A stretch of 64,000 nt of DNA from Escherichia coli (GTDB lineage: Bacteria > Pseudomonadota > Gammaproteobacteria > Enterobacterales > Enterobacteriaceae), in the NCBI RefSeq assembly GCF_030384885.1, contig NZ_CP128613.1. One strand, written 5' to 3'. How positions within the stretch are numbered: the stretch's first letter is position 1; every line of letters starts with the position of its first letter. Of the stretch, positions 33,709-55,592 are shown one piece after another. The notes beneath the pieces are model-generated. The model was not told where the DNA came from. It did no database searches and saw only the letters and a list, made by a program, of their open reading frames with translations. A program made the translations under genes and the position numbers.

Positions 33709-33712
33709 TATT

Positions 33713-36845: not shown

Positions 36846-38525
<1,680 letters not shown>

Positions 38526-38899
38526 TTATCGGGCTTTTCTTTAAGGGTAGTCATTCGCTCCGCCTGGTGGGCGACAAAGCGTGCGGTGGATCACGTTTAT
38601 TAACTTGTCAAAAAATATAACGCACTAATATCAATAGAATTTATAAAAATACGGATTCCGTGTTGTTTTTCATTTTCAGAACATTCAATCCTGCTCTCGT
38701 CGCAATCATGATATGCCATCCCTGCTCTTTATAATAGGCACAGGCTATCTTATTGATAGTTTATATTCATGTAATTGATTGATTCCTATCAAAAAGCGTA
38801 TTTCCCTGTTTTTTATGATGGCTTTGTCTCGCAGAGACGTTTGCAGCATTCTGGAAAATTTTCTGGGTCACAATAACTCACCACCGTGAGGGAAGAATA

Positions 38900-40297
38900 A
38901 TGAAAATGGTCTCACGTATTACCGCGATCGGCCTGGCTGGCGTCGCGATTTGCTATTTAGGGTTATCTGGTTATGTGTGGTACCACGATAATAAACGCAG
39001 TAAACAGGCCGATGTTCAGGCATCTGCTGTCAGTGAAAATAATCAGGTTTTAGGTTTTCTTCGCGAAAAAGGATGCGACTATTGTCATACGCCTTCGGCA
39101 GAATTACCCGCCTATTATTATATTCCTGGCGCGAAACAGTTGATGGATTACGACATTAAGCTTGGATATAAATCTTTTAACCTCGAGGCCGTGCGTGCGG
39201 CTCTGTTGGCAGATAAACCCGTTTCGCAAAGCGATCTGAATAAGATTGAATGGGTGATGCAGTATGAAACTATGCCGCCAACGCGTTACACCGCGCTACA
39301 CTGGGCGGGTAAGGTGAGTGATGAAGAGCGGGCGGAAATACTTGCCTGGATTGCAAAACAGCGCGCGGAATATTACGCCAGTAATGATACTGCTCCGGAG
39401 CATCGCAATGAACCGGTGCAGCCTATTCCGCAAAAACTGCCTACCGATGCGCAAAAAGTGGCGTTGGGTTTTACGCTGTATCATGATCCCCGTTTATCGG
39501 CTGATAGCACCATTTCATGTGCACATTGCCATGCGTTAAATGCGGGTGGCGTTGATGGCAGAAAAACGTCGATTGGTGTTGGTGGTGCCGTTGGACCGAT
39601 TAACGCACCGACGGTCTTTAACTCAGTATTTAACGTTGAGCAGTTCTGGGATGGTCGTGCGGCAACATTGCAGGATCAGGCGGGGGGACCGCCGTTGAAC
39701 CCGATTGAAATGGCGTCGAAATCCTGGGACGAAATTATTGCTAAGCTGGAAAAAGATCCGCAGCTTAAAGCGCAGTTCCTCGAAGTCTATCCGCAAGGTT
39801 TCAGTGGCGAAAATATTACTGATGCTATTGCTGAATTTGAGAAAACATTAATTACGCCGGATTCCCCATTTGATAAATGGTTGCGTGGAGATGAGAATGC
39901 GCTGACGGTGCAACAGAAAAAAGGCTATCAATTATTTAAAGATAATAAATGTGCAACTTGTCATGGTGGTATTATTCTCGGCGGACGTTCTTTCGAGCCG
40001 TTGGGGCTGAAAAAAGACTTTAACTTTGGGGAAATTACGGCGGCGGATATTGGTCGTATGAATGTTACTAAAGAAGAGCGTGATAAATTGCGTCAGAAAG
40101 TACCCGGTTTACGTAACGTTGCTTTAACGGCACCGTACTTCCATCGCGGTGACGTGCCGACGCTGGACGGGGCGGTAAAACTGATGCTGCGCTATCAGGT
40201 AGGCAAAGAGCTGCCGCAGGAGGATGTGGATGATATCGTAGCTTTCCTGCACAGTCTGAACGGGGTATATACGCCGTATATGCAGGATAAACAATAA
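38900..40297 (+). CDS. yhjA: Cytochrome c peroxidase YhjA/Ccp (465 aa)
   Basis: Multiple CxxCH haem motifs (CDYCH, CAHCH, CATCH). Confidence 0.9.
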   Translation: MKMVSRITAIGLAGVAICYLGLSGYVWYHDNKRSKQADVQASAVSENNQVLGFLREKGCDYCHTPSAELPAYYYIPGAKQLMDYDIKLGYKSFNLEAVRAALLADKPVSQSDLNKIEWVMQYETMPPTRYTALHWAGKVSDEERAEILAWIAKQRAEYYASNDTAPEHRNEPVQPIPQKLPTDAQKVALGFTLYHDPRLSADSTISCAHCHALNAGGVDGRKTSIGVGGAVGPINAPTVFNSVFNVEQFWDGRAATLQDQAGGPPLNPIEMASKSWDEIIAKLEKDPQLKAQFLEVYPQGFSGENITDAIAEFEKTLITPDSPFDKWLRGDENALTVQQKKGYQLFKDNKCATCHGGIILGGRSFEPLGLKKDFNFGEITAADIGRMNVTKEERDKLRQKVPGLRNVALTAPYFHRGDVPTLDGAVKLMLRYQVGKELPQEDVDDIVAFLHSLNGVYTPYMQDKQ

Positions 40298-40507
40298 TTA
40301 ATTTGATCGCCTGAACAGGAATGTTTGGGCGATTTTTATTACGACAATAAAGTCTGTTTTTAATATTATCATGTTAAATGTTTATATTATAAAAAGTCGT
40401 TTTTCTGCTTAGGATTTTGTTATTTAAATTAAGCCTGTAATGCCTTGCTTCCATTGCGGATAAATCCTACTTTTTTATTGCCTTCAAATAAATTTAAGGA
40501 GTTCGAA

Positions 40508-41908
40508 ATGGACCAGAAGCTGTTAACGGATTTCCGCTCAGAACTACTCGATTCACGTTTTGGCGCAAAGGCCATTTCTACTATCGCGGAGTCAAAACGA
40601 TTTCCGCTGCACGAAATGCGCGATGATGTCGCATTCCAGATTATCAATGATGAATTATATCTTGATGGCAACGCTCGTCAGAACCTGGCCACTTTCTGCC
40701 AGACCTGGGACGACGAAAACGTCCATAAATTGATGGATTTGTCGATCAACAAAAACTGGATCGACAAAGAAGAATATCCGCAATCTGCAGCTATCGACCT
40801 GCGTTGCGTAAATATGGTTGCTGACTTGTGGCATGCGCCTGCGCCGAAAAATGGTCAGGCCGTTGGCACCAACACCATTGGCTCTTCCGAGGCCTGTATG
40901 CTCGGCGGGATGGCGATGAAATGGCGTTGGCGCAAGCGTATGGAAGCCGCAGGCAAGCCAACGGATAAACCTAATCTGGTGTGCGGCCCGGTACAAATCT
41001 GCTGGCATAAATTCGCCCGTTACTGGGATGTGGAGCTGCGTGAAATCCCTATGCGCCCCGGTCAGTTGTTTATGGATCCGAAACGCATGATTGAAGCCTG
41101 CGACGAAAACACCATCGGCGTGGTGCCGACTTTCGGCGTGACCTACACCGGTAACTATGAATTCCCGCAACCGCTGCACGATGCACTGGATAAATTCCAG
41201 GCCGACACCGGTATCGACATCGACATGCACATCGACGCCGCCAGCGGTGGCTTCCTGGCACCGTTCGTCGCCCCGGATATCGTCTGGGACTTCCGCCTGC
41301 CTCGTGTGAAATCGATCAGTGCTTCAGGCCACAAATTCGGTCTGGCTCCGCTGGGCTGCGGCTGGGTTATCTGGCGTGACGAAGAAGCGCTGCCGCAGGA
41401 ACTGGTATTCAACGTTGACTACCTCGGTGGTCAGATTGGCACTTTCGCCATCAACTTCTCCCGTCCGGCGGGCCAGGTAATTGCACAGTACTACGAGTTC
41501 TTGCGCCTCGGTCGTGAAGGCTATACCAAAGTACAGAACGCTTCCTACCAGGTAGCTGCCTATCTGGCAGATGAAATCGCCAAACTGGGGCCGTATGAGT
41601 TCATCTGTACCGGTCGCCCGGATGAAGGCATCCCGGCGGTTTGCTTCAAACTGAAAGATGGTGAAGATCCGGGATACACCCTGTATGACCTCTCTGAACG
41701 TCTGCGTCTGCGCGGCTGGCAGGTTCCGGCCTTCACCCTCGGCGGTGAAGCCACCGACATCGTGGTGATGCGCATTATGTGCCGTCGTGGCTTCGAAATG
41801 GACTTTGCTGAACTGTTACTGGAAGACTACAAAGCCTCCCTGAAATACCTCAGCGATCACCCGAAACTGCAGGGTATAGCCCAGCAGAACAGCTTTAAAC
41901 ACACCTGA
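40508..41908 (+). CDS. gadA: Glutamate decarboxylase alpha GadA (466 aa)
   Basis: ATG at 40508 ([19 protein letters not shown]...); PLP-dependent decarboxylase; adjacent to gadX, hence gadA rather than gadB. Confidence 0.95.
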
Positions 41909-42276
41909 TAACATAATTTTGTAAAAACCGAATGCCCCGACCTTAAAAAACAGGTGGGGTATTCGGTTACTTATTCATGCAATAATATATTGGCTGTTTA
42001 TTCATCGTGTTGATAAGATATATGTTATATGAATGTTATTAAGGGTGGCAGGACCGTTTAATATCACAATAAGGGATTATTTGCTTACTAATAATTTCTC
42101 TGCGTTTTTAACGCCTTTTTTTGTATTATAAATCCAGTTATCCAGCCCGATTATCATCACACATCATCATCCTGTTTTCCCGCTTCGTTTAAATTTATTT
42201 ATCAATCAATTTGACTTAAGAGGGCGGCGTGCTACATTAATAAACAGTAATATGTTTATGTAATATTAAGCCGACT

Positions 42277-43101
42277 ATGCAATCACTACATGGTAATTGT
42301 CTAATTGCGTACGCAAGACATAAATATATTCTCACCATGGTTAATGGTGAATATCGCTATTTTAATGGCGGTGAACTGGTTTTTGCGGATGCAAGTCAAA
42401 TTCAAGTGGATAAGTGTGTCGAGAATTTTGTATTAGTTTCAAGGGACACGCTTTCATTATTTCTCCCGATGCTCAAGGAGGAGGCATTAAATCTTCATGC
42501 ACATAAAAAAGTTCCTTCGTTACTCGTTCATCACTGTACCAGAGATATTCCTGTTTTTCAGGAGGTTGCGCAACTATCGCAGAATAAGAATCTGCGCTAT
42601 GCAGAAATGCTCCGTAAAAGAGCATTAATCTTTGCGTTGTTATCTGTTTTCCTGGAGGACGAGCAGTTTATACCGCTGCTTCTGAACGTTTTGCAACCGA
42701 ACATGCGAACACGAGTTTGTACGGTCATCAATAATAATATCGCCCATGAGTGGACATTAGCCCAAATCGCCAGCGAGCTGTTGATGAGTTCAAGCCTGTT
42801 AAAGAAAAAATTGCGCGAAGAAGGTACGTCATATTCACAGTTGCTTACTGAGTGTAGAATGCAACGTGCTTTACAACTTATTGTTATACATGGGTTTTCA
42901 ATTAAAAGAGTCGCAGTGTCCTGTGGTTATCACAGCGTGTCGTATTTCATTTACGTTTTTCGAAATTATTATGGGATGACGCCCACAGAGTATCAGGAGC
43001 GATCGGCACAAGAATTGCCGAACCGTGACTCGGTGGCAAGTATTGTTGCACAAGGGAATTTTTACGGCACTGACCGTTCTGCGGAAGAAATAAGATTATA
43101 G
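42277..43101 (+). CDS. gadX: AraC-family acid-resistance regulator GadX (274 aa)
   Basis: ORF track; C-terminal AraC HTH. Confidence 0.95.
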   Translation: MQSLHGNCLIAYARHKYILTMVNGEYRYFNGGELVFADASQIQVDKCVENFVLVSRDTLSLFLPMLKEEALNLHAHKKVPSLLVHHCTRDIPVFQEVAQLSQNKNLRYAEMLRKRALIFALLSVFLEDEQFIPLLLNVLQPNMRTRVCTVINNNIAHEWTLAQIASELLMSSSLLKKKLREEGTSYSQLLTECRMQRALQLIVIHGFSIKRVAVSCGYHSVSYFIYVFRNYYGMTPTEYQERSAQELPNRDSVASIVAQGNFYGTDRSAEEIRL

Positions 43102-43116
43102 TTTTTACCCAGACAT

Positions 43117-43222
43117 AAAAAAAACCCGGCATAGGGGACCGGGAAGAGGATAGTCTGCCGTCTCCAGACTAATAAACCGTTATAACACTCCCTGTTGGCA
43201 CGGGAAACTTTGTGCTCTCAGT
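43117..43222 (-). ncRNA. gadY: GadY small RNA (antisense to gadX 3' end)
   Basis: Minus-strand sequence ACTGAGAGCACAAAGTTTCCCGTGCCAACAGGGAGTGTTATAACGG...CCTATGCCGGGTTTTTTTT matches recalled GadY, ending in a hairpin and T-run. Confidence 0.8.
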
Positions 43223-43468
43223 AAGTTAAATATAACTTTTACTGGAGATAAGATCAGCCATTTTTTTATAAACATAAGCTATGCGCTGTGTGAAAATATA
43301 TTCTTCTTGCATTTTCTTATTATCAATTAACTGTTATGTCAAACTACTTTTTGGATAACTTTTGGTCCTACCAAATATGGCAGTTTATGCACGAAGAAGC
43401 GGTCTGGCATCATTTCATTAGTATACTGAAATTGAAATAATCGCAGTAATGAAATATAAGGGATAGTC

Positions 43469-44197
43469 ATGACTCATGTCTGCTCGGTGATCCTCGTTCG
43501 TCGTTCATTGGATATTCATCATGAACAGCAAAAAATATCGTTGCACAACGAAAGTATTCTACTGCTGGATAAAAATTTGGCAGACGATTTTGCGTTTTGT
43601 TCACCGGATACGCGACGACTGGATATCGATGAGCTGACAGTTTGCCATTACTTACAAAATATTCGTCAGTTACCGCGCAATTTAGGGTTACATAGCAAAG
43701 ACCGTTTGTTAATTAACCAGTCCCCGCCCATGCCTCTGGTGACGGCGATTTTTGATAGTTTCAATGAATCCGGAGTAAATTCGCCGATACTGAGCAATAT
43801 GCTCTACCTTTCCTGTTTATCTATGTTTTCTCATAAGAAAGAACTAATCCCCTTACTTTTCAATAGTATCAGCACTGTTTCAGGAAAAGTTGAACGCCTT
43901 ATTAGCTTTGATATCGCTAAACGTTGGTATCTACGCGATATCGCGGAAAGAATGTATACCAGCGAGAGTCTAATCAAAAAAAAGTTGCAGGACGAAAATA
44001 CCTGTTTCAGTAAAATATTACTCGCTTCCAGGATGTCGATGGCCAGACGATTACTCGAGTTACGTCAAATTCCTTTGCATACTATTGCTGAAAAATGTGG
44101 GTATAGCAGTACGTCATACTTTATAAACACATTTCGACAATATTATGGTGTAACGCCACATCAGTTTGCGCAACATTCGCCGGGTACCTTTTCCTGA
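43469..44197 (+). CDS. gadW: AraC-family regulator GadW (242 aa)
   Basis: ORF track; AraC HTH. Confidence 0.95.
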   Translation: MTHVCSVILVRRSLDIHHEQQKISLHNESILLLDKNLADDFAFCSPDTRRLDIDELTVCHYLQNIRQLPRNLGLHSKDRLLINQSPPMPLVTAIFDSFNESGVNSPILSNMLYLSCLSMFSHKKELIPLLFNSISTVSGKVERLISFDIAKRWYLRDIAERMYTSESLIKKKLQDENTCFSKILLASRMSMARRLLELRQIPLHTIAEKCGYSSTSYFINTFRQYYGVTPHQFAQHSPGTFS

Positions 44198-44558
44198 CCT
44201 ATTTCGTATTTGAATATTGGTCAGGATCTCGCACCTGCTTCATGTGAAACTCTTTCCTGATGATTTTGCCGGGCTACCGGCAAGATCTCTTTCGCAGTAT
44301 GCCAGGCGGTATAGGTATTTTCAGGAGGAAAAGACTCGGCATGTTTGGGATTATTAAGCTGACAATTCATACGATTACGGGAATGTGGGTCAGTATTGTG
44401 CTGTTCAAATTGATGACGAATGGCTGGAGTGGCTTCTACTTTCAGTGCTGTGTACTAAGCCTGGTATTCCTGACGGTCAGCTGGTTGTTGAGTGGTGAAT
44501 GGTTAGCAGGAAAGAGTAAGGCTGAACCCTCACGTTCAACCTTACTCTCATTTACACG

Positions 44559-47500
44559 TTACGCTTTTTTAAAGCGGGCAAAGAGATGTTCCACTACAAC
44601 GAAAAAGACTGGAACGAAGTAAATGGCCAGCACTGTTGCGGCAAACATCCCGCCCATCACGCCGGTACCTACCGCGTTTTGCGCGCCGGAACCGGCACCA
44701 TGACTGATTACCAGCGGCAGCACGCCGAGAATAAAGGCCAGAGAGGTCATCAGGATTGGGCGTAAACGCATTCGCGCCGCTTCGATGATCGCCTCTATCG
44801 GCGTTTTCCCTTCTTTCTGCATCATCTCAACGGCAAATTCGACGATCAGGATGGCGTTCTTGGCGGAAAGCCCGATGGTAGTCAGCAAACCAACCTGGAA
44901 GTAGACGTCATTACTTAAGCCGCGCAGATCGGTGGCCAGTAATGCGCCAACGACGCCTAACGGTACAACCAACATCACCGAGAACGGAATTGACCAGCTC
45001 TCATAAAGTGCGGCAAGGGCGAGGAACACCACGACCAGTGAAATGGCATACAGCGCGGGAGCCTGATTTGAGGATAACGCTTCCTGATACGACAGTCCGG
45101 TCCATGAGTAGCCGACGCCTGCCGGAAGTTTAGCGACCAGGTCTGCCATAAATTTCATGGCGTCACCGGTACTTTTCCCGGCCGCCGCTTCACCTAAAAT
45201 CTCCATTGACGGGATGCCGTTGTAGCGTTCCAGTCGCGGTGAACCATAGGTCCATTCGGTAGACGAATAGGCCGAAAGCGGTGCCATCGTGCCAGAGGCG
45301 TTGCGTACATACCACTGGTTGATGTTATCCGGCAACATACGGAACGGCGTGCCTGCCTGGACATACACTTTTTTCACCCGCCCCTGGTTGAGGAAGTCGT
45401 TCACGTAGCTGCTGCCGAAGGCGGTGGAAATTGTCTGGTTGATATCAGACAGCGCCACACCCATTGCCTCGGCTTTCGCGGCGTTGACGTTCACTTTGAA
45501 CATCGGCGTATCTTCCAGTCCGTTCGGGCGTACCCCGGTGACCTGATTCGGTGATTGCGCTGCCAGTGATAATAGCTCGTTTCGCGCCTGGGTCAGTTTT
45601 TCGTGCCCCAGGTTACCGTTGTCCAGCAGTTCCATATCAAAACCTGACGCGGTACCCAGTTCAGCCACCGCGGGTAAGTTGAACGGGAAGACGACGGCTT
45701 TATTGATACTGCTTAACGCAATCATTGCCCGCTGAATGATCGCGGTAACCGAGTTTTCCTCACCGACACGTTCAGACCACGGTTTGAGGCTGATAAACGC
45801 CAGACCGTTGTTTTGCCCCTGGCCACTGAAGCCAAAGCCGCCAACGGTAAACACCGACTGAACATTATCTTTCTCTTTTGTCAGATAATAATCAGTCACC
45901 TGTTGCAGCACTTTCGTGGTGTTAACCATGGTTGCACCGGAAGGTAACTGCGCGGTGGTCATAAATACCCCCTGATCCTCTTCTGGTAAGAAAGAGGTCG
46001 GCGTACGCAGGAACAGCACCGCCATCCCGGCGCAAATCAGCAGGTAGACCACCATGTAGCGACCGGTACAACGCAACAGCGAGCGGGTGCTGTCGGTATA
46101 GTGATGAGTCGATTTTTCAAACAGCGTGTTGAAGCGTGCGAACAGGGCGTTAGGTTTGTGACCGCCTTCCGGCGCGGCTTTCAGAATGGTGGCGCACAGG
46201 GCAGGGGTCAGGCTCATTGCCACAAATACTGAAAGCAGCATGGAGGAGATCAGCGTGATGGAGAACTGTCGGTAGATCTCCCCGGTTGCACCGCTCATAA
46301 AGGCCATCGGCATAAACACTGCGGAAAGAACAACGGCAATCCCGACCAGCGCACGTTGGATCTGCCCCATCGATTTATGCGTCGCTTCCTTCGGCGGTAG
46401 TTTATCTTCCGCAATGACACGCTCGACGTTCTCCACCACCACGATGGCGTCATCCACCAGTAACCCTATCGCCAGCACCATCCCGAACATAGTTAACGTG
46501 TTGATGGTGAAACCGACCGCCGACAAGATCGCAAACGTCCCGAGAATAACCACCGGTACGGCAATCGTCGGGATGATTGTGGCGCGGAAATTCTGCAAAA
46601 ACAGATACATGACCAGGAAGACGAGGATGATAGCCTCAACCAGCGTTTTGAAAACTTCCTGAATAGAAATTTTGATAAACGGTGTGGTGTCGTAAGGATA
46701 AACCGTCTTCAGGCTTGTGGGGAAATAAGCCGATAAACGGTTCAGCTCCTCTTTCACCGCTCGCGAGGTATCCAGGGCGTTTGCTCCGGTAGCCAGTTTG
46801 ATGGCGATCCCGGCAGCAGGTTTGCCGTTATAGCGCGCCACGGTGGAATAATCTTCCGCCCCAAGTTCGACGCGGGCGACATCACGCAGCAGTACTTGCG
46901 AACCATCTTGCTGAACTTTCAACAGGATTTTGCCAAATTCTTCCGGCGTTTGCAGACGCGTCTGCACAATGATCGAGGCGTTCAGTTGCTGGTCTGCCGC
47001 CTGTGGCATGCCACCCAGTTGACCACCGGAAATCTGGTTGTTTTGCACCTTAATCTGGGAAATAACATCGGAAGGTACCAGGTTATATTTATTGAGTTTT
47101 TGCGGGTCCAGCCAGATACGCATGGCGTACTCGGAACCAAAGAGTTGTACGCTACCAACGCCCGCGGTACGGCTTAGCGGGTCTTTGATATTAGACGCTA
47201 CATAGTCCGCGATATCGTACTGGTTGAGACTGCCGTTATCAGAAATGAACGCCGCTACCATCAGGATATTACTGCTCGACTTATCGACGCTAATACCCTG
47301 CTGCTGCACCGCTTCAGGTAATGAAGGCATAGCGAGTTGCAGTTTATTTTGCACCTGAACCTGCGCGATATCAGGCGATGTCCCCGTCTCAAAGGTCAGA
47401 GTGATGGAGGCATTACCCGCCGCATCGCTGGTTGAAGACATGTACATCAGGCCATCAAGCCCATTCATATTTTGCTCAATCACCTGAGTGACCGAGTCTT

Positions 47501-47672
47501 CTACCGTTTGCGCATCGGCACCCGGATAGGTTGCGCTGACGGTAATGGTTGGTGGCGCAATCTGCGGATATTGCGCAACCGGTAAGTTCATGATCGCCAG
47601 ACCACCTGCAAGCATCATAATAATGGCAAGTACCCAGGCAAAAACCGGGCGATCAATAAAATAGTTAGCCAT
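44559..47672 (-). CDS. mdtF: RND multidrug efflux pump MdtF (1037 aa)
   Basis: ORF track; AcrB-like RND transporter. Confidence 0.95.
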
Positions 47673-47696
47673 GAAAGTCCCCTTAAGCCTGCAACG

Positions 47697-48854
47697 TTAT
47701 TGTTTCGATTCGGTGCTGGCGTTTTCCTGGCTGGAGGAAATTGCACGTGCTTTGATACCCGGACGAATGCGTTGCAACCCGGAAACGATCACCCGATCGC
47801 CAGCCTGCAAGCCAGAGGTGACAACCCACTGGTCGCCGATGGCTTTGCTGGCTTCAATTTCGCGTAGCTGCACAACATCGTCTTTATCCAGAATGAGCGC
47901 CGTTGCTTTACCCTGCGCGTTGTGGGTGACGCCTTCCTGCGGCACCAGTAATACATTCTGGCGGCTACCTTCATCCACTAATGCCGTGACATACATACCT
48001 GGCAGCAAGTCACCATTTGGGTTGGGGAAAATCGCCCGTAACGTCACGGAGCCCGTGGTTTCATCCACCGTCGGGTCGGAGAATTTCAGCGTGCCGGTCT
48101 GGCTGTAACGTTTACCATTTTCCAGATTGAGCTGTACTGGCGTACTGCCCTGAACCTGTTTGATTTGTCCACTGGCGACCTCTTCTTTCATGCGCAAAAA
48201 ATCCTGCACCGACTGCGTGAGATCGACATAAATCGGGTCCAGACGTTGTACGGTAACCAGCGAATCTGCCTGATTAGCGGTAACGAGTGCGCCGACGGTC
48301 ACCGACGATTTCCCGCTGACGCCCGTAATCGGCGAGGTGACATTTGCGTATTGCAGGTTGATAGTCGCCTGTTCAACAGCCGCTTTGGCGACGGTGACAT
48401 TGGCTTCTGCTTCATTCAGCTGGGTGCGCGCGGTGTCGTAATCCTGACGGCTAACGTAGTTGGTCTTCAGCAATGATGCCTGGCGGTTGAAGGTGATGCG
48501 GGCATTGCTGGCGGTAGAGAGCGCTTTCGCCAGCGTGCCTTTGGCGGAGTTTAGATCGGCCTGTAAAGGCGCAGGATCAATCTGATACAGCGAATCGCCC
48601 TGGTTCACTTTATCGCCTTCGATAAAGTTGCGTTTAATGATAATACCGCCCACCTGGGGGCGTATCTCGGCAACTTCATAAGGAACGGTTCTACCGGGCA
48701 ATTCGCTCAACACATTGACCGAACCGGGGGAGAGTGTGACGACACCGACCTCAGGCGTCATGGCGGCGGCGTTTTCCGTCGATTTGTCATCGCAGGCGGT
48801 GAGCATCGTGCCGCAGAATAACAACGGTATTAACAGTTTTCTTCTTCTGTTCAT
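47697..48854 (-). CDS. mdtE: RND efflux membrane fusion protein MdtE (385 aa)
   Basis: ORF track; lipoprotein signal (LTAC) and MFP fold sequence. Confidence 0.95.
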   Translation of the reverse strand: MNRRRKLLIPLLFCGTMLTACDDKSTENAAAMTPEVGVVTLSPGSVNVLSELPGRTVPYEVAEIRPQVGGIIIKRNFIEGDKVNQGDSLYQIDPAPLQADLNSAKGTLAKALSTASNARITFNRQASLLKTNYVSRQDYDTARTQLNEAEANVTVAKAAVEQATINLQYANVTSPITGVSGKSSVTVGALVTANQADSLVTVQRLDPIYVDLTQSVQDFLRMKEEVASGQIKQVQGSTPVQLNLENGKRYSQTGTLKFSDPTVDETTGSVTLRAIFPNPNGDLLPGMYVTALVDEGSRQNVLLVPQEGVTHNAQGKATALILDKDDVVQLREIEASKAIGDQWVVTSGLQAGDRVIVSGLQRIRPGIKARAISSSQENASTESKQ

Positions 48855-49192
48855 TTTAGTCCCTGAAAATTCTTGAGATATAACGGTTCTTTAAATTGCG
48901 CGCGAGGAGAGGTATGAGGGATTTACAGACCAGCGGCATAGTGGGGTTGTCAGCCAGTAAGATGGGATGCAAGCACAGTGATCGACATGGTGAGGTCAAC
49001 GACAAAAAAAATGTTGCCGTTCTGCCAACAGTTCCTGCCAGCATTCGGGCAACGAAGGGTTCTACTGGTGGATACACATACCAGGGGAATAAAGTCGTTT
49101 TCGCCTCTCCTTTAGTCATCACCGGGGATAATGAAATCAGCATCTGCATCCCTCTTCATGCCTGCCATCATTTTCAGTTAATTATGTCCTGA

Positions 49193-49720
49193 CTAAAAAT
49201 AAGATGTGATACCCAGGGTGACGATGTCGCTCATACGTCTTAGTTTCAGCTTGTACATAATGTTGAATTTCTGAATCTTTAATGTTTGTTGCGAAATATT
49301 GAGCGTTGACGTGATATTGCTTTCGTTTTTGTTTTTCAGAATCAGCTGCATAATTTTGAACTGATTATGTGAAAAACATAATTGTGAATTCTTATGGGGC
49401 AAGTGTTTACCATAAGTAATCTCAAGAAGATTTTTGATACTTTCTTTGCGGCTGACAAAATAAATAGGCGCTTTAGCTTTTAGTTTACTGATGTGATAAG
49501 GTGCCAAAACAATAATTCTCTCGGCGTCTAATTTCTCCAGAAATTTAATCGCTTCTTCATCAAGGATATGGTTGTGATAGGTATCAATGATAACCTTGAA
49601 GGGTTTATTACCTACTTTTTTGATCTCTGACAGGGAATTGATTTTTATCATTTCGTGATTATCTTTCAACTGCCAAAAGCCCTGTAAAAGAAAAGAATCT
49701 TTCGTCATGAGAAAAATCAT
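49193..49720 (-). CDS. gadE: LuxR-family acid-resistance master regulator GadE (175 aa)
   Basis: ATG at 49720 (MIFLMTKDSFLLQGFW...) with ggag RBS, inside track ORF 49193..49798. Confidence 0.9.
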   Translation of the reverse strand: MIFLMTKDSFLLQGFWQLKDNHEMIKINSLSEIKKVGNKPFKVIIDTYHNHILDEEAIKFLEKLDAERIIVLAPYHISKLKAKAPIYFVSRKESIKNLLEITYGKHLPHKNSQLCFSHNQFKIMQLILKNKNESNITSTLNISQQTLKIQKFNIMYKLKLRRMSDIVTLGITSYF

Positions 49721-50518
49721 AACTTGCTCCTTAGCCGTTATCGTTTCGAACATGTCATCCTTTTCATTATTTACATCCCTGTCCGAATCGTTGTTCAATA
49801 TAGTAAACGCCTATAAGAACCTTGCCCTTCGTGAACTAATACGTCTATTAACACTAATCAATAATTCAGATTTATCCATCACGCACTCCATATATTGATC
49901 CTAAGTAAAATTCCTGGTTGTTATCAGATTGTAAACTGCAAACAAAAAATTAACGTTTGCGGATTACTGCCCAAGAATAAGTTATCAATAACCAGTTTGT
50001 GATCTCTGAAGAATATTACTAAAGTTAAAATGTAATCCGATTTAAATATCGAGTCTCCTTGTTTCGACTTAAGCTGGCAATTGGATTGCCAGCTTTCTTT
50101 TAACGCATTGAAATTACCTGAGTAAATAACTCATTCATGTCTTCAGGTTATTATATAGCGTCTGGAGACACGGATATTTATGCAATGTAATCAACGCCAA
50201 TTGCAAAAAAATGAACCCGGATTACTTATTTAACCGCCCATAGCATCAACGCCTACGGAACTCTTTGTTCACTTTCCCACAGCACTTTTAAAACATTAAA
50301 CCTGACTACGGAAAATATCAGCCATGATAATGTTTGAAATGGCTAATTTGCCATGCAATGAAAAAAATCAGATAAAATTCAGTAGGTTGAAATACTTATC
50401 AGCAGGTAATTATTTCAATGATAGCGCGCAATTGATCTAAAATGCTGTGTAGCGGAGAGAGTATTAATTGGATCATAGTCACATCAAGTGACTATGATCC
50501 AGGTGGCAATAGGGATAA
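49721..50518 (-). promoter_or_regulatory. Long AT-rich gadE upstream control region
   Basis: ~800 bp non-coding AT-rich tract between hdeD 3' end and gadE start; established knowledge that gadE has an extended multi-promoter regulatory region. Confidence 0.6.
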
Positions 50519-51091
50519 TTATTGCTTTTTAACAAACAAACTGGCGAAGCTGAACAGGCTAGCGGCGCTAAATATCAGTTCAATTCCCACTAGTGTGGAA
50601 ACCAGCGTTACAGAAACCATCGGCGTTGCGCCAAGGAATATCCAGGCAATGACGATATCCAGCACACCAATAACGAGCTGTAGCCAACTGCCTTTCATTG
50701 AACGCTGACGATACCAACTCATCAGACGAATAACTCCTGCCACACAGAACAAACCGGCAATAAATGCCGCAATGGCAAAAATGCCCAGCTCCGGTGCGCG
50801 GATGAAGAAATAGCCGATCAATAAATAGGCGATTGCGACGAGGAAACCGGATAATACAGGCCAGAAATTATGACTGCGGTTGCTGAATAACCCGACAATA
50901 AGCGCAATACCTGAGCAGATTAATAATGCACCCACTACTGTGCTTAAAATGTCGCCAGAGACGAACGGGAAACTGATACACAGCAACCCGACGATAAACA
51001 GCAGCACGGCAATAAACTGGATTGCTCTACGGTGCTTTTTAAGCATCTCCAGATCAAACTTCAAAATTGTTGCCTTATCTATATATAACAT
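50519..51091 (-). CDS. hdeD: Acid-resistance membrane protein HdeD (190 aa)
   Basis: ORF track; multi-TM. Confidence 0.9.
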   Translation of the reverse strand: MLYIDKATILKFDLEMLKKHRRAIQFIAVLLFIVGLLCISFPFVSGDILSTVVGALLICSGIALIVGLFSNRSHNFWPVLSGFLVAIAYLLIGYFFIRAPELGIFAIAAFIAGLFCVAGVIRLMSWYRQRSMKGSWLQLVIGVLDIVIAWIFLGATPMVSVTLVSTLVGIELIFSAASLFSFASLFVKKQ

Positions 51092-51345
51092 ATAACCACC
51101 CTATAAAATTAAGAAGAAAATCCCCTGCTATCAATCTATGCCAAAAACGCGTCTAAGAATGCAGTCGATTTAATAAAAATTTCCTAATTACAGTATCTGA
51201 TGCATCTGTAACTCATTGTATTGAAATAAAAATATCTGATTTTGATATTTTCCATCAACATGACATATACAGAAAACCAGGTTATAACCTCAGTGTCGAA
51301 ATTAATTCGTGACGGCTCTTTCACTTTATAGTTGAGGATATTACG

Positions 51346-51678
51346 ATGAAAAAAGTATTAGGCGTTATTCTTGGTGGTCTGCTTCTTCTGCCAGTGGTGA
51401 GCAATGCAGCGGATGCACAAAAAGCAGCTGATAACAAAAAACCGGTCAACACCTGGACCTGTGAAGATTTTCTGGCTGTGGACGAATCCTTCCAGCCAAC
51501 TGCAGTTGGTTTTGCTGAAGCACTGAACAATAAAGATAAACCAGAAGATGCGGTTTTAGATGTTCAGGGTATTGCAACCGTAACCCCAGCGATCGTTCAG
51601 GCTTGTACTCAGGATAAACAAGCCAACTTTAAAGATAAAGTTAAAAGCGAATGGGACAAAGTTAAGAAAGATATGTAA
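51346..51678 (+). CDS. hdeA: Periplasmic acid stress chaperone HdeA (110 aa)
   Basis: ORF track; signal peptide; aggata RBS. Confidence 0.95.
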   Translation: MKKVLGVILGGLLLLPVVSNAADAQKAADNKKPVNTWTCEDFLAVDESFQPTAVGFAEALNNKDKPEDAVLDVQGIATVTPAIVQACTQDKQANFKDKVKSEWDKVKKDM

Positions 51679-51793
51679 TTCCGGGAATACGTTACATCGT
51701 ACTTCCTTGCATATTGAACAGGTAGGAATACCTTCTTCAAAAGCAGCTATTCCTTCTGTTCATATTTAATCTCTATATTGAATGGGTTACAAA

Positions 51794-52120
51794 ATGAATA
51801 TTTCATCTCTCCGTAAAGCGTTTATTTTTATGGGCGCTGTAGCGGCTTTGTCACTGGTGAACGCACAATCTGCGCTGGCAGCCAATGAATCCGCTAAAGA
51901 TATGACTTGCCAGGAATTTATTGATCTGAATCCAAAAGCAATGACACCGGTTGCGTGGTGGATGCTGCATGAAGAAACAGTTTATAAAGGTGGTGATACT
52001 GTTACTTTAAATGAAACCGATCTTACTCAAATTCCTAAAGTGATCGAATACTGCAAAAAAAATCCGCAGAAAAATTTGTATACTTTCAAAAATCAAGCAT
52101 CTAATGACTTGCCGAATTAA
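51794..52120 (+). CDS. hdeB: Periplasmic acid stress chaperone HdeB (108 aa)
   Basis: ATG at 51794 (MNISSLRKAFIFMGAVAALSLVNA...) within track ORF 51782..52120. Confidence 0.9.
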   Translation: MNISSLRKAFIFMGAVAALSLVNAQSALAANESAKDMTCQEFIDLNPKAMTPVAWWMLHEETVYKGGDTVTLNETDLTQIPKVIEYCKKNPQKNLYTFKNQASNDLPN

Positions 52121-52183
52121 TGGGGCACAAGTAAAAAGGAGTAGCAAGTTGAGCCATCTTGCTGCTCCTTTTTGCATTTTTAT

Positions 52184-52831
52184 ATGACAGCAGAATTTAT
52201 TATACGTCTTATACTCGCAGCAATTGCCTGTGGCGCTATTGGCATGGAAAGGCAAATGCGCGGCAAAGGAGCAGGGTTACGCACACATGTATTAATTGGC
52301 ATGGGAAGCGCCCTGTTTATGATTGTTTCGAAATATGGTTTTGCTGACGTGCTGTCTTTAGATCACGTCGGACTGGACCCCAGCCGTATTGCTGCTCAGG
52401 TGGTGACGGGCGTCGGGTTTATCGGTGCAGGTAACATTCTCGTTCGTAACCAAAATATTGTGGGTCTGACGACGGCAGCCGATATCTGGGTGACTGCGGC
52501 TATTGGTATGGTGATTGGCAGCGGTATGTATGAGCTGGGCATTTATGGTTCAGTAATGACCTTGCTGGTGCTGGAAGTCTTCCATCAATTAACCTTCCGC
52601 CTGATGAATAAAAATTACCATTTACAGCTGACATTAGTGAACGGTAATACGGTATCAATGCTCGACTGGTTTAAGCAGCAAAAAATAAAAACGGATTTAG
52701 TTTCGTTGCAGGAAAATGAAGATCATGAAGTGGTCGCCATTGATATCCAGCTTCATGCCACGACGTCGATAGAAGATCTGTTGCGATTATTAAAAGGTAT
52801 GGCAGGGGTGAAAGGCGTTTCAATTAGCTAA
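52184..52831 (+). CDS. yhiD: MgtC-family inner membrane protein YhiD (215 aa)
   Basis: ATG at 52184 (MTAEFIIRLILAAIACGAIGMERQ...) - MgtC/SapB signature. Confidence 0.9.
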   Translation: MTAEFIIRLILAAIACGAIGMERQMRGKGAGLRTHVLIGMGSALFMIVSKYGFADVLSLDHVGLDPSRIAAQVVTGVGFIGAGNILVRNQNIVGLTTAADIWVTAAIGMVIGSGMYELGIYGSVMTLLVLEVFHQLTFRLMNKNYHLQLTLVNGNTVSMLDWFKQQKIKTDLVSLQENEDHEVVAIDIQLHATTSIEDLLRLLKGMAGVKGVSIS

Positions 52832-52873
52832 TCTGTGTGGTAGCGAAATCACACTCGCCACCCTACTGGAAAT

Positions 52874-53404
52874 TCACACCAGATAATCAATATGCTGATG
52901 GCGTACCAACTCATTGATCCGCTTAAGATTGAGGATCATCATGATATTGTGTTTATGGCAGTAGAACGTTTTTAGCGATATTTTCAGTTTCTCCAGAATA
53001 TCTTCCGTTGTCATTTGATTCGCAATACAGCTTAGAACCTGATGCTGCTTGCGCGAAAGGGACACATCCGCTTCAGGCACAGAGCAGTAACTGCCATTGA
53101 TGAGTGCGACAAAGTCGATGATGGTGATAGTTCGCGGAACAAAGGTCACCGGTACTTTCCCCAGGCAGCGTTTAATATTAAAGGGAGAGAAAATAATCAC
53201 ATGGACAGGTTTTAATCGTTCAATCTGAGTGAGCAAATTAGAATGAAATACATTATTCATTAATGTATCAATAATGACGAAGGCATGCTGATGCAACATT
53301 ACGTCGATCTCTTCTTCGTTCTGTATATGAACGACATTACCTTTGCTCAGAATGTTTTTCATCGCAGTGAAGAACATCGTATCCCTGGTAATTATAAGAA
53401 ACAT
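52874..53404 (-). CDS. dctR: LuxR-family regulator DctR/YhiF (176 aa)
   Basis: ORF track; C-terminal LuxR HTH. Confidence 0.9.
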   Translation of the reverse strand: MFLIITRDTMFFTAMKNILSKGNVVHIQNEEEIDVMLHQHAFVIIDTLMNNVFHSNLLTQIERLKPVHVIIFSPFNIKRCLGKVPVTFVPRTITIIDFVALINGSYCSVPEADVSLSRKQHQVLSCIANQMTTEDILEKLKISLKTFYCHKHNIMMILNLKRINELVRHQHIDYLV

Positions 53405-53556
53405 AACCGACTCCTGGTGCGGACATTAACTTTATAATCAGTTTGCCAAAGGTAATTAACAGGACAGGGCTTATAATAATAGTTAGCTGGCTGTGTATTA
53501 ATTTGATGCAATGCATGATGCAGATGCTGAGAAAGCATCTGCATCTCTCGGTGGTG

Positions 53557-54123
53557 TTATTTGACCAGCTCAGGTGTTACTTGACTCACCGCATTGGTGT
53601 AGTAAGGCGCGCCCCAGCCCGGTTCCGGCCAGAATGCACCATAGCCGTAATCCCACAGGTTATAGGTGGTATTAACCACTTCTCTCAAATGCCACACCTG
53701 GATGCCCTGCATATTCACTTCCAGGAAGTTATACGGGACTTTATTGATAAAGCCAGGTTGTTCACCCTGAATGGTACCGAGGATGGTAACAAAGTGATTA
53801 CGATAGTTCACTGGATCAAGGAAGCCGCTTTGTCTGGCGAGCAGTCGGCCCTGATAGTTGGCTTCAATATCAGGCTTCGCATAGCTATCCAACGGTAATA
53901 CAGCGATTTCTAACAACGTATCCGTTTTGCCATTGATAACGTTGATAACCTTCCCGCCAAAGCGCGCTTGTTGACCAACATATAACCCCGGCTGGTTATG
54001 AACAGCAACAAAACTTTTTTGAATATCAGGTTGGTTATTGCCTTTGATATTTTGCGGAATTGAACTACATGCGGCAAGCAAAAATGAAAGGCTGAGGATG
54101 AGTGCACCTTTTGTCATGTTCAT
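53557..54123 (-). CDS. slp: Outer-membrane starvation lipoprotein Slp (188 aa)
   Basis: ATG at 54123 (MNMTKGALILSLSFLLAACSS lipobox) inside track ORF 53557..54342. Confidence 0.9.
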   Translation of the reverse strand: MNMTKGALILSLSFLLAACSSIPQNIKGNNQPDIQKSFVAVHNQPGLYVGQQARFGGKVINVINGKTDTLLEIAVLPLDSYAKPDIEANYQGRLLARQSGFLDPVNYRNHFVTILGTIQGEQPGFINKVPYNFLEVNMQGIQVWHLREVVNTTYNLWDYGYGAFWPEPGWGAPYYTNAVSQVTPELVK

Positions 54124-54368
54124 GTTACTATCCTTATCAACAAATATTAAAACCATAATAGATATTTCTTTATAGTTTTCATCTGATTCTGAGGCGATAT
54201 GCCTGATAGTAACGTAAACCTGTCTGATGTTTATATCCATTCTGTTTAGTTTAATTCTGTTAATTTTGGGGCGTGACATGAGTATCCATCGCCCCATAAA
54301 ATAGCCTTTTTTTAAAGGTACATAAAATCTATTTTTATTCAATGCTTATAAAGCGCTAATGTTCAATA

Positions 54369-55592
54369 TTATGGGATTATATTCTGGTAATGATTTGATA
54401 AGCGAATTCTTTTGCCAGTTGATATTTCTATTTCCACCCCATAATTTATAGTTTTTTCATCAGGTAGCGATCTCTTTAAATAAGGTGCGTATGACATTTT
54501 TTTAGGATGAAACGTATCGTGTTGAAATATTTCGAATTGATATTCAGACATTTGTGCCCATGTTTGAATTTTATTGTATCGGGAGAGTGTCGTAAAGGCT
54601 TTAACTTGCTTATAACATTGTTTTTGGAATTCTTGCTGATATTTTAATATGTCGTTGTATGAAAGATTGGTTATCCTGGCCTCTAAAAACTTAATTATCG
54701 TCGAAGCAACTTCAGCTTTTGCTCGTAAAAAGTTGTCATTAATGGTTAATAATGTTGAAAATAAACCTTCAATTTGTTTGTCAAGATATTGTTCATCTTT
54801 ATATAATTTATGGGTAGGGTGTTCCTTATGTGAAAAAATAGTGTCACATAAATTTGCGTCAGTGAAATTTATATTAAGTAGATCTTCGAAATAAAACCTT
54901 GACAAGGTTAGAACGAACCCGGACAGGTTCTGTCCTGTCATATTGAAATCAATAAAGTTGGTTCCGGCAAAGACTTTCATTCTGTTTTTATTTTCACTGT
55001 GCTCAATATATAACTTCGTCATTTTTTGATACAGGCTTTGAATATCTTTTATATTAGTTGGTAAGTCAGCTCGTTGTTCAGCAATAAAATTAGTATCTGA
55101 AAACATGGTTTGGACACTGAATGTTATGGGTATTCCCTCTTCTACGCTAATTTTAGTTATGATTGCCTTGTCGGGTTTAGGATTAGCGACAACAATGATT
55201 CGACATTCAGCACTTTTGTTCTTTTCGTATCTAATGTTATTAATCTGATTAAGTATTGATTGTGTCTGTTGCGTAAGTGGTGTCGAACTTATCGTTTCAA
55301 TGTTATTAATAAGTTTTACAAGTTGAGCCACAACTTTTGAGTAGTCTGCATTTGTATATGTGGTGTTCGTGTGGCACGCATTAATTTGTTGGAGTTGTTG
55401 TTGCGCTAAATCAAATTGTTCAGCGTTATATCCTTCTTCAGACAATGAAAAATTAATGGGTTGCTGTTCTTCCTGATTATCACAAGGCCACATCGGTGTG
55501 TTTGGTGTTTTAATATTGTCGGTATCTGTTGTGCGGTTATAAATATCGCCGTGATATGTATTTATCATACCTGGGGTAAAGTCAATTGACAT
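54369..55592 (-). CDS. yhiS: YhiS-like protein, intact (407 aa), pentapeptide-repeat-like central region
   Basis: ORF track; AT-rich; position between slp and ars region corresponds to yhiS, which in K-12 is split by IS5; no IS seen here. Confidence 0.7.

Follow-up and report, generated by a model that had tools for sequence, protein, structure and literature searches.

We hold with high confidence that the 64-kb stretch of DNA analysed here (the window) carries the canonical Escherichia acid fitness island (AFI) in the chu-less arrangement of K-12 and in a host of cryptic clade I, that the island is a mosaic in base composition and probably under H-NS/StpA control, and that it was assembled early and has since passed down by vertical descent. 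The AFI is a well-known system for acid resistance, and the copy in this window is an ordinary member of it, with nothing new.

Gene content and chromosomal position

Along the + strand the gene order is gadA-gadX-(GadY)-gadW-mdtF-mdtE-gadE-hdeD-hdeA-hdeB-yhiD-dctR-slp, with ccp (yhjA) and treF on one side and yhiS, ars and gor on the other, which is the chromosomal site of the AFI. E. coli 2013C-4282 aligns colinearly with the window at 99.4-99.5% identity, and its annotation supplied the gene names and coordinates; colinearity with the annotated AFIs of 2013C-4282, K-12 BW25113 and O157 holds gene for gene. All 12 genes have intact reading frames and correspond one by one to those of K-12, which bears out the gene list from slp to gadA given in the earlier note. 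That list follows the K-12 order, i.e., the reverse of the + strand of the window.

Family models scored above their curated cutoffs for GadA, GadX, MdtE, MdtF, HdeD, HdeA, HdeB and YhiD, and Pfam domains were matched in GadE, DctR and Slp (Table 1). The profile matches of gadW included no GadW-specific model and reached the level of the AraC family, its name following from colinearity. The regulatory elements of an AFI are likewise in place, namely GadY between gadX and gadW, the 798-bp control region of gadE, and a GAD box upstream of gadA that was found with a sequence we take to be the published consensus (TTAGGATTTTGTTATTTAAA). A match to the small RNA ES205 in the gadE-mdtE spacer has the same orientation as the gadE-mdtEF operon. 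The yhiS-like ORF next to the island gave no Pfam domain match.

Table 1. Features of the AFI and its right-hand margin (positions in the window)
Feature	Position	Strand	Evidence or remark
GAD box, predicted GadE binding site, upstream of gadA	40409-40428	+	perfect 20/20 match to TTAGGATTTTGTTATTTAAA; chance expectation 0.01
gadA, glutamate decarboxylase	40508-41908	+	TIGR01788, 693 bits (cutoff 380); intact ORF
AT-rich module 1, 39.8% GC	41891-44630	.	segmentation and per-gene GC
gadX, AraC-family activator	42277-43101	+	NF007432 GadX, 593 bits (cutoff 500)
GadY small RNA, antisense, gadX 3' end	43112-43225	-	Rfam RF00122, 150 bits (gathering score 45), full-length
gadW, AraC-family regulator	43469-44197	+	AraC-family matches; colinear with annotated gadW
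mdtF, RND efflux pump	44559-47672	-	TIGR00915, 1704 bits
mdtE, RND efflux pump	47697-48806	-	NF007362 MdtE, 836 bits (cutoff 738)
ES205 small RNA match, gadE-mdtE spacer	49004-49075	-	Rfam RF02754, 105 bits (gathering score 86)
gadE, LuxR-family central activator	49193-49720	-	Pfam GerE HTH
gadE upstream regulatory region, 798 bp, 35.5% GC	49721-50518	.	length identical in K-12
hdeD, acid-resistance membrane protein	50519-51091	-	NF007577, 302 bits (cutoff 189)
hdeA	51346-51678	+	NF007576, above cutoff
hdeB	51794-52120	+	NF008599, above cutoff
yhiD	52184-52831	+	NF007431, above cutoff
yhiD-dctR spacer, 42 bp, chu-less junction	52832-52873	.	site of the ~9-kb chu locus in O157-type islands
dctR/yhiF, LuxR family	52874-53404	-	Pfam GerE
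slp, outer-membrane lipoprotein	53557-54123	-	Pfam Slp
AT-rich tract continuation, 33.5% GC	54111-56280	.	segmentation; slp promoter, yhiS-like ORF and 579-bp spacer
yhiS-like ORF, 407 aa	54369-55592	-	90% amino-acid identity to O157 YhiS

Base composition

The AFI is a mosaic, in which AT-rich stretches covering gadX-GadY-gadW and the segment from gadE to slp (and on into yhiS) are interleaved with gadA and mdtEF, whose GC content is normal. The earlier note had described positions 40445-54342 as an AT-rich, compositionally distinct block. Mean GC over that interval is indeed 45.6%, compared with 52.9% on the bcs side, 50.5% from kdgK to ccp and 52.2% on the ars/gor side, and from slp to gadA it is 45.9%, compared with 50.0% in a 300-kb sample of a near-identical genome. 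Base and codon statistics, on which that description had been made to depend, set the AFI genes apart from neighbouring core genes (GC, p=0.0006; median GC3 0.48 versus 0.589 in 27 flanking core genes, one-sided Mann-Whitney p=0.0013). The picture of one uniform block does not stand, however, as gadA (GC 54.0%, GC3 0.625) and mdtFE (44559-48806; GC 53.6%, GC3 0.62) are core-like, and together they make up about 41.5% of the AFI at GC and GC3 values at or above those of the core.

Likelihood segmentation grouped gadA with the left flank and returned AT-rich segments at 41891-44630 (39.8%), 48821-54110 (40.7%) and 54111-56280 (33.5%), with a GC-normal segment at 44631-48820 between them. The first contains the gadA-gadX spacer, gadX (GC 41.3%, GC3 0.40), GadY, gadW (GC 40.6%, GC3 0.41) and part of the gadW-mdtF spacer. 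The other two form a second AT-rich tract (48,821-56,280) that includes gadE (GC 33.7%) as well as hdeA and hdeB, which at 0.34 have the lowest GC3 of the island. This tract reaches yhiS, running ~2 kb beyond the right end of 54342 that had been proposed, so that the most AT-rich part (the slp promoter, yhiS and the next intergenic region) was left outside; at the other end, the GAD box of gadA falls just outside a boundary at 40445. Coding sequence occupies 78.5% of the AFI and 85-92% of the flanks, and pooled intergenic GC is 36.9% in the AFI as against 40.6-47.7% in the flanks. The four long AT-rich intergenic regions that had been singled out are real: gadE-hdeD (798 bp, 35.5% GC), hdeD-hdeA (254 bp, 31.9%), gadA-gadX (368 bp, 32.6%) and gadX-gadW (367 bp, 36.0%).

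Comparison with other acid fitness islands

The host is a strain of Escherichia cryptic clade I and not K-12, which accounts for a divergence of ~3.5% at the nucleotide level from the K-12 AFI. The K-12 island, for which PMC5799925 and PMC9144400 cite Hommais et al. 2004, Mates et al. 2007 and Tramonti et al. 2008, extends from slp to gadA, and in MG1655 it measures 13,620 bp at 46.0% GC (PMC9144400), compared with 13,616 bp and 45.9% here. The 12 genes, their order, orientation and lengths, the region upstream of gadE and the chu-less yhiD-dctR junction with its homologous spacer are all as in K-12 BW25113. GadA, GadE, YhiD and HdeB of the closest strain, 2013C-4282, have the same RefSeq accessions as those of BW25113. 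The two islands differ to the right of slp: yhiS, a gene that differs from strain to strain and survives only as a pseudogene in K-12 and 2013C-4282, the closest strain, lacks the IS5 interruption of K-12 and is open here, and between yhiS and arsC lie an ArsP-family permease and an ArsR/SmtB regulator, both absent from K-12.

The AFI of O157:H7 (EDL933 type), with its chu/shu haem transport locus included, is 22,676 bp long. It likewise lies between ccp and yhiS, and its 12 AFI genes are colinear with those of the window, with nucleotide identities of 96-98%; GadE (100%), YhiD and HdeB are 99-100% identical in amino-acid sequence. Of the two islands, only that of O157 has chuS, chuA, chuT, chuW, chuX, chuY, chuU and an ATPase gene, eight genes of ~9 kb that take the place of the ~40-bp spacer seen here between yhiD and dctR. 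The gap of 42 bp and its alignment to both O157 junctions rule out a chu-containing variant (the O157:H7 or Shigella dysenteriae type), and the comparison with O157, which had been recommended as a check, confirms a K-12-like island free of haem-uptake genes. Among 5,426 complete E. coli genomes, 3,177 have the same uninterrupted junction, and homologous spacers occur in K-12, E. whittamii and Escherichia sp. E1V33.

Gene order around gadE is the same in E. albertii, E. whittamii, E1V33, MOD1-EC7003 and E69, whose structural proteins are 96-99% identical to those here. A tblastn search of these loci with the Chu proteins of O157 found chu in E. albertii and E69, only chuS and chuA in MOD1-EC7003, and no chu genes in E. 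whittamii and E1V33. E. albertii lacks yhiD, and yhiS is absent from E. whittamii, E1V33 and MOD1-EC7003. GadX and GadW of the other species are only 75-89% identical to the copies in the window; GadW spans this whole range, and GadX is 75-76% identical in complete alignments to E69 and E. albertii, its alignments to E. whittamii and E1V33 being partial.

Function and regulation

GadA decarboxylates glutamate and thereby consumes one proton, and the gene for its partner antiporter, GadC, lies elsewhere, adjoining gadB. Two periplasmic chaperones, HdeA and HdeB, are activated by acid; three further products (HdeD, YhiD and Slp) belong to the cell envelope; and mdtEF, which is co-transcribed with gadE, encodes an efflux pump of the RND family. 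Regulation involves a circuit of two LuxR-family proteins (GadE and DctR), two AraC-family proteins (GadX and GadW) and the small RNA GadY.

In K-12 the AFI is under H-NS repression and RpoS control (PMC2984483), and H-NS occupies the gadE promoter, where it is antagonised by ArcA (PMC3708157). The stretch upstream of gadE in K-12 has been described both as a 750-bp sensory integration region and as the site of this antagonism (PMC3708157; work cited in PMC4918353). Further studies of K-12 reported an H-NS/StpA-dependent protein occupancy domain of ~5 kb over hdeAB-yhiD, hdeD, arrS and gadEF (bioRxiv 10.1101/2024.06.20.599902), and wide binding of H-NS across the AFI, with StpA at slp-dctR and yhiS (bioRxiv 10.64898/2026.02.10.705075). 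In K-12, H-NS and StpA coat the AT-rich modules and long intergenic regions and silence them; when the pH is low or the cells are in stationary phase, they are displaced by GadE, GadX/W, YdeO, ArcA and RpoS. Silencing by H-NS/StpA is established in K-12; because DNA identity is 96.5% and the regulatory elements are preserved, we infer that the same control probably operates in the present copy. A scan with the published high-affinity H-NS motif gave eight matches, with six expected.

Origin of the island

The AFI was matched in 5,425 of 5,426 complete E. coli genomes and was found in one piece, with at least 80% query coverage, in 5,406 of the 5,426 (~99.6%). Its identity to E. coli is 96.5%, compared with 95.8% for the flanks, so that the island is no more divergent than its surroundings. 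Among ~100,000 species representatives, relatives of GadE were found only in Escherichia species and in two obviously contaminated assemblies, in a contig scan for exact matches to 8-residue stretches of this GadE, which detects close relatives, misses distant homologues and also missed some Escherichia and Shigella representatives, including E. fergusonii. Published work likewise confines the AFI to Escherichia, reporting that Salmonella and Yersinia lack it (PMC5799925, PMC4918353), and places it on a branch within the genus (PMC5799925). This distribution supports the horizontal acquisition that had been proposed.

A classical mobile island is ruled out by near-universal presence in the species and by the lack of its hallmarks: ARAGORN found neither tRNA nor tmRNA genes anywhere in the 64 kb, the colinear record of 99.4% identity has no integrase, transposase or other mobility gene annotated from treF to gor, and no direct repeats bracket the island, the only flanking matches being short (16-38 nt, 60-94% identity). 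Variation among strains is limited to the chu insert, yhiS and the arsP-like pair. The AFI resembles xenogeneically silenced enterobacterial islands in its AT-rich segments, long AT-rich promoters, restricted distribution and the H-NS/StpA occupancy documented for the K-12 orthologue; unlike acquired islands of that kind, it has no tRNA site, integrase or direct repeats, is nearly universal, and is GC-normal over ~41% of its length. Near-universal presence, flank-like divergence and the missing hallmarks mean that a horizontal origin is supported by phyletic distribution and by the GC3 of nine of the 12 genes, and not by direct evidence of transfer. Presence in ~99.6% of genomes together with flank-like divergence points to an ancient acquisition with vertical inheritance since, and foreign DNA put together early in the history of the genus is the most likely source of the AFI, which is neither recent nor mobile.

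That the region simply falls within normal compositional variation, with no distinct feature, is very improbable. As a unit the 13.9-kb island is not compositionally extreme, because 17.6% of windows of that size in the 300-kb sample are equally or more AT-rich, and only one of its 13 1-kb windows lies below the 5th percentile of the sample; however, the sample itself holds islands (the capsule locus and prophage remnants), and segmentation at a stringent threshold recovers the AT-rich sub-blocks, the only extremes among the AFI parts, in a range (<42% GC) that covers about 4.6% of the sample. Segmentation and the comparison with core genes largely refute this reading. It is also unlikely, if less so, that AT-richness is functional and not historical, arising from an unusual abundance of intergenic control regions and from regulator genes that are small and weakly expressed, and kept by AT-biased mutation and selection for H-NS-based control, an explanation silent on foreign origin. 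The high non-coding share (21.5%, versus 8-15% in the flanks) and low intergenic GC favour it, as do the effectively core status and flank-like divergence of the AFI in E. coli, the missing mobility hallmarks, and AT-richness retained in all species compared despite long residence. Regulation alone, however, hardly explains GC3 values of hdeA/hdeB and gadX/gadW that rank among the lowest 3-9% when 176 ORFs sampled from the genome are compared, nor do the restriction of close GadE relatives to Escherichia (PMC4918353) and the extension of the AT-rich signature into strain-variable yhiS fit it well.

A composite origin, in which several modules of differing ancestry became neighbours, is a serious alternative, with somewhat less than an even chance, to a single acquired island. 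The foreign parts would be gadXW and gadE-hdeD-hdeAB-yhiD-dctR-slp-yhiS, whereas gadA, whose similarity to its partner gadB would be maintained by gene conversion, and mdtEF, which encodes an acrAB-like pump, would be native-like or derive from a donor of normal GC content. GC3 is 0.62 in gadA, mdtE and mdtF and 0.34-0.42 in hdeA, hdeB, gadX, gadW and gadE, and this 20-point gap argues against one homogeneous import, although it might also reflect expression level and selection, gadA being highly expressed and the pump genes long and conserved. The change points are sharp (41,890, 44,630 and 48,820), and homology of gadA to gadB (94.3% identity to the gadB of the near-identical strain) begins exactly at the GAD box and ends at the gadA stop codon. 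Between species, gadX/gadW show 75-78% amino-acid and 48-66% third-position identity, compared with 97-98% and 67-75% for their neighbours, and pairwise identities do not follow one tree (E69 versus E. whittamii, 96.3% in hdeB and 86.4% in yhiD); PMC5799925 also concludes in favour of a history with more to it than one event. Against a composite origin, no donor lineages have been identified, and the 12-gene order is kept in all Escherichia species examined, yhiD of E. albertii excepted, so that any assembly must be older than the divergence of these species.

Genomic background and gene content

The window is colinear with the chromosome of E. coli 2013C-4282 (NZ_CP027579.1), with no large insertions or deletions and 99.4-99.5% identity, and it matches nearly all complete E. 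coli genomes at approximately 96% identity. Because 2013C-4282 is found among the Escherichia cryptic clade I strains (PMC10100065), the identity of 99.4% to this strain, together with that of ~96% to E. coli, shows that the source is a clade I genome, and that it is neither K-12 nor a member of E. coli sensu stricto. The acid fitness island (AFI) itself is ~96.5% identical to its counterpart in nearly all of the 5,426 complete E. coli genomes, reaching at least 99% in only one, and the flank at 28000-38500 is ~95.8% identical, reaching at least 99% in only eight. Because the island is no more diverged than its flanks, this indicates that the AFI has been inherited vertically from a time before clade I and E. 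coli sensu stricto diverged.

Annotation was carried over from NZ_CP027579.1 and each reading frame was then verified in the window sequence. All 12 AFI genes have intact reading frames (see table), and the gene list of the earlier note proved correct, although the order in which it was given is that of K-12, opposite to the + strand of the window. From slp to gadA the island spans 13,616 bp with 45.9% GC, in agreement with the 13,620 bp and 46.0% GC of the MG1655 island (PMC9144400).

Features and compositional segments of the acid fitness island and its right boundary
Feature	Position	Strand	Basis or remark
gadA	40508-41908	+	NCBIfam score above curated cutoff
gadX	42277-43101	+	NCBIfam score above curated cutoff
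gadW	43469-44197	+	Generic AraC-family matches only; name from synteny
mdtF	44559-47672	-	NCBIfam score above curated cutoff
mdtE	47697-48806	-	NCBIfam score above curated cutoff
gadE	49193-49720	-	LuxR-type HTH domain
hdeD	50519-51091	-	NCBIfam score above curated cutoff
hdeA	51346-51678	+	NCBIfam score above curated cutoff
hdeB	51794-52120	+	NCBIfam score above curated cutoff
yhiD	52184-52831	+	NCBIfam score above curated cutoff
dctR	52874-53404	-	LuxR-type HTH domain
slp	53557-54123	-	Slp family match
GAD box	40409-40428		Perfect 20-nt consensus match, ~80 bp upstream of gadA
GadY small RNA	43112-43225	-	Rfam, 150 bits; between gadX and gadW
ES205 small RNA match	49004-49075	-	Rfam; gadE-mdtE spacer
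yhiS-like ORF	54369-55592	-	Past slp; open for 407 aa
ArsP-family (ArsP_1) permease	56173-57174		
ArsR/SmtB regulator	57282-57602		Divergent
Segment, 49.9% GC	24461-41890		gadA merged into left flank
Segment, 39.8% GC	41891-44630		gadX-GadY-gadW
Segment, 53.8% GC	44631-48820		mdtFE
Segment, 40.7% GC	48821-54110		gadE to slp
Segment, 33.5% GC	54111-56280		slp promoter, yhiS, spacer
Segment, 51.3% GC	56281-64000		Right flank

The GAD box, identified by its consensus from the literature, lies just beyond the left coordinate of the span assigned to the island in the earlier note (40445-54342). A 92-aa "hypothetical protein" called by PGAP at 48914-49192 (+) might bring the number of island genes to 13, but it is probably not a real gene: no Pfam domain matches it, it is encoded opposite the gadE-mdtE spacer on the strand complementary to the ES205 match, which it overlaps, and its amino acid identity between species is only 60-67%, compared with 97% for neighbouring genes. 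The gadA region (40409-41912) is 94.3% identical to the gadB region of the same lineage (35260-36763 of L005, the gadB locus of 2013C-4282), with homology that begins exactly at the GAD box and stops 4 nt past the stop codon. If the K-12 gadA/gadB pair is, as we presume, nearer 97-98% identical, gene conversion would have been less recent in the present lineage.

Base composition

The island had been described as a compositionally distinct, AT-rich block with long AT-rich intergenic regions. Its average AT-richness was borne out: GC content is 45.6% over 40445-54342, compared with 52.9% on the bcs side, 50.5% in kdgK-ccp and 52.2% on the ars/gor side. Median GC3 is 0.48 for the 12 AFI genes versus 0.589 for 27 flanking core genes (one-sided Mann-Whitney, p=0.0013; p=0.0006 for total GC), the coding fraction is 78.5% versus 85-92% in the flanks, and pooled intergenic GC is 36.9% versus 40.6-47.7%. 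The four intergenic regions that had been singled out, namely gadE-hdeD (798 bp), hdeD-hdeA (254 bp), gadA-gadX (368 bp) and gadX-gadW (367 bp), are likewise AT-rich (35.5, 31.9, 32.6 and 36.0% GC, respectively).

The description as a single block did not hold, nor did its boundaries, as likelihood-based segmentation of the window revealed that the AFI is a compositional mosaic (see table). Together, gadA (54.0% GC, GC3 0.625) and mdtF/mdtE (53.6% GC, GC3 0.62) make up 41.5% of the island, and their GC3 ranks at the 86th-90th percentile among 176 ORFs sampled from the near-identical 2013C-4282 genome, while hdeA and hdeB (GC3 0.34), gadX and gadW (0.40-0.41) and gadE (33.7% GC) fall within the lowest 3-9% of this sample. 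At a stricter threshold, the sole block kept in the island part of the window was 48,821-56,280, with 38.6% GC. The strongest AT-rich tract thus runs from gadE to past yhiS, and the segment of lowest GC places the most AT-rich DNA partly beyond 54342.

Nor is the 13.9-kb unit as a whole a compositional outlier relative to a 300-kb sample drawn from six parts of the 2013C-4282 genome, in which 17.6% of 13.9-kb windows were as AT-rich or more so (17.6th percentile). Strict segments below 42% GC made up only 4.6% of the same sample, and the claim of AT-richness is therefore better made for sub-blocks. Given this mosaic composition and the misplaced boundaries, the compositional observation is partly confirmed.

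The yhiD-dctR junction and divergence within the island

The island had also been described as K-12-like, with no iron or haem-uptake genes inserted, and comparison with reference strains showed that it is K-12-like and lacks chu. K-12 BW25113 carries an identical 12-gene set with equal gene lengths and an equal 798-bp region upstream of gadE. In O157:H7, eight haem uptake and utilisation genes (chu, ~9 kb) separate yhiD from dctR, which lie only 42 bp apart in the window. Alignment with O157 showed that common sequence reaches 5 nt beyond the yhiD stop codon and resumes at the dctR stop codon, the short spacer of the window being unrelated to either O157 junction. A query spanning the junction aligned without a break in 58.6% of the complete E. 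coli genomes (3,177 of 5,426); in all others the match was split. The word "inserted", on the other hand, prejudges a polarity that both a published study (PMC5799925) and the present data leave undecided.

Clade I shares a homologous ~40-bp spacer (52832-52873) with K-12, E. whittamii and Escherichia sp. E1V33, whereas chu-plus genomes lack it, so that chu and the spacer resemble alternative alleles at one site; of the chu genes, just chuS and chuA are retained in Escherichia sp. MOD1-EC7003. That chu-plus and chu-minus islands might be deeply diverged haplotypes is contradicted by their flanking genes: yhiD and dctR group by lineage and not by chu state, and in both genes identity between chu-minus K-12 and chu-plus O157 is 98.9-99.6%. 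Divergence within the island is uneven. GadX and GadW (42277-44197 compared with L012-L015, Escherichia loci of the GadE comparison) share 75-89% amino acid identity between Escherichia species, and GadA, MdtE and MdtF share 97-99%; in the comparison with E. albertii and E. whittamii, the values are 75-78% for GadX and GadW and 97-98% for GadA and MdtF. At third codon positions, identity between species is 48-74% for gadX/gadW versus 67-77% for gadA, mdtE and mdtF. Between E. coli-labelled E69 and E. whittamii, hdeB is 96.3% and yhiD 86.4% identical.

A tentative reading, which we consider somewhat less probable than its negation, is that the AFI is an old mosaic still being reshuffled by recombination among Escherichia lineages, with chu and the spacer as exchangeable alleles and with unusually fast evolution of gadXW. 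If true, continued reshuffling would account for a chu distribution that has been called "puzzling" (PMC5799925), and would imply that evolution of the acid-response regulators is diversifying or relaxed. A population-genetic study might start from the spacer that chu-less islands of different species have in common and from the rapid divergence of gadXW, although neither would surprise specialists.

Origin of the island

Horizontal acquisition, as claimed in the earlier note, is supported as an ancient event and not in the form of a classical mobile island. A scan for GadE with exact peptide words in one genome for each of 100,044 species, an approach that is restricted to close relatives and evidently passed over several representatives of Escherichia and Shigella, found relatives limited to Escherichia (E. 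coli-labelled SCPM-O-B-8794 and E69, Escherichia spp. MOD1-EC7003 and E1V33, E. whittamii and E. albertii), apart from two contigs. These contigs, assigned to "Flavobacterium paronense" (L016; NZ_JAUFQN010000010.1, 8.6 kb) and "Streptomyces sp. DH24" (L017; NZ_JARVKW010000110.1, 466 bp), would place the AFI outside Escherichia; the AFI and chu genes on both are E. coli-like, some encoding proteins up to 96-100% identical and others with noise typical of assembly errors, and the contigs are most likely contamination in public assemblies.

Searches around the island for tRNA and tmRNA genes and for direct and inverted repeats yielded no marker of an integration boundary and no bracketing repeats, and the transferred annotation contains no integrase or transposase for the AFI. 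The island is present in 5,406-5,425 of the 5,426 complete E. coli genomes. This near-universal presence, together with the lack of tRNA, integrase or transposase and bracketing repeats in these searches, argues against a classical mobile island, and the AFI is best read as having been acquired long ago and as belonging now to the core of the genus Escherichia. The 20-point gap in GC3 between modules, the very uneven divergence and a closest species that shifts from gene to gene would be compatible with assembly of the AFI in multiple steps.

Probable H-NS silencing

In K-12, H-NS broadly occupies the gadE promoter, from which it is displaced by ArcA (PMC3708157), and an H-NS/StpA-dependent extended protein occupancy domain of ~5 kb covers hdeAB-yhiD, hdeD, arrS and gadEF (bioRxiv 10.1101/2024.06.20.599902). 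Wide binding of H-NS over the AFI, with strong StpA binding at slp-dctR and yhiS, has also been reported in K-12 (bioRxiv 10.64898/2026.02.10.705075). These bound regions correspond to the AT-rich segments of the window. The published high-affinity H-NS motif TCGATAAATT, allowing at most one mismatch, gave 8 matches versus 6.0 expected, with no concentration in the island. Given that identity is 96.5% and that the GAD box, GadY and the lengths of the spacers are preserved, silencing as known from K-12 would be expected to extend to the present copy. The interpretation of the earlier note is supported, its H-NS part resting on K-12 literature.

The AFI is among the best-studied E. coli stress loci, and the finding, while correct in substance, concerns a textbook locus. 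Its low GC, H-NS silencing, restriction to Escherichia and chu-plus and chu-minus variants have all been published previously, so that confirming them adds little. Besides the correction to a compositional mosaic and the comparative observations above, what is contributed is context: a copy of the AFI in a cryptic clade I genome, which has kept an arsP-like/arsR-like pair that K-12 has lost.

Right boundary and other features of the window

No coding DNA near the island is more AT-rich than the yhiS-like ORF (33-34% GC). The ORF lacks a Pfam domain, and its product is 90% identical to a 371-aa O157 protein; in 2013C-4282 it carries an annotated frameshift, and in K-12 it is interrupted by IS5. 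Among strains, yhiS identity is 90-95%, making it more divergent than the AFI. Between yhiS and arsC lie the ArsP-family permease and ArsR/SmtB regulator, which are present in E. whittamii and absent from K-12 and O157. A query comprising yhiS and this pair (54124-57622) was matched over at least 80% of its length in 2,222 of 5,426 E. coli genomes, and the full-coverage matches, among the matches listed, are annotated with the pair. Some plasmids carry ~84% identical copies of it.

A 5.6-kb AT-rich insertion (22158-27806) separates yhjJ from kdgK, two genes that are direct neighbours in O157, and is more island-like than the AFI. Its GC content is 42.6% overall and 35.9% in the first 2.3 kb. 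It encodes five small proteins, one with a lipoprotein-like signal and none with a Pfam or PADLOC match, along with a 664-aa protein and a DUF3142 protein; DUF3142 and a sub-threshold TPR in the 664-aa protein were the only matches to Pfam and PADLOC in the insertion. Any match to it was found in only 200 of 5,426 E. coli genomes, with at least 80% coverage in 2. The first 2.3 kb occurs in ~170 E. coli genomes at 98.5% identity, which exceeds the ~96% of the core and suggests that this part may have been exchanged recently.

Type I toxin-antitoxin loci are found on both sides of the region (1919-2623 and 59909-60584). One is ldr/rdlD, where a tandem duplication (~484 bp, 95% identity) accounts for two ldr toxin genes and two rdlD antitoxin RNAs, and the other is dinQ with two AgrB antisense RNAs.
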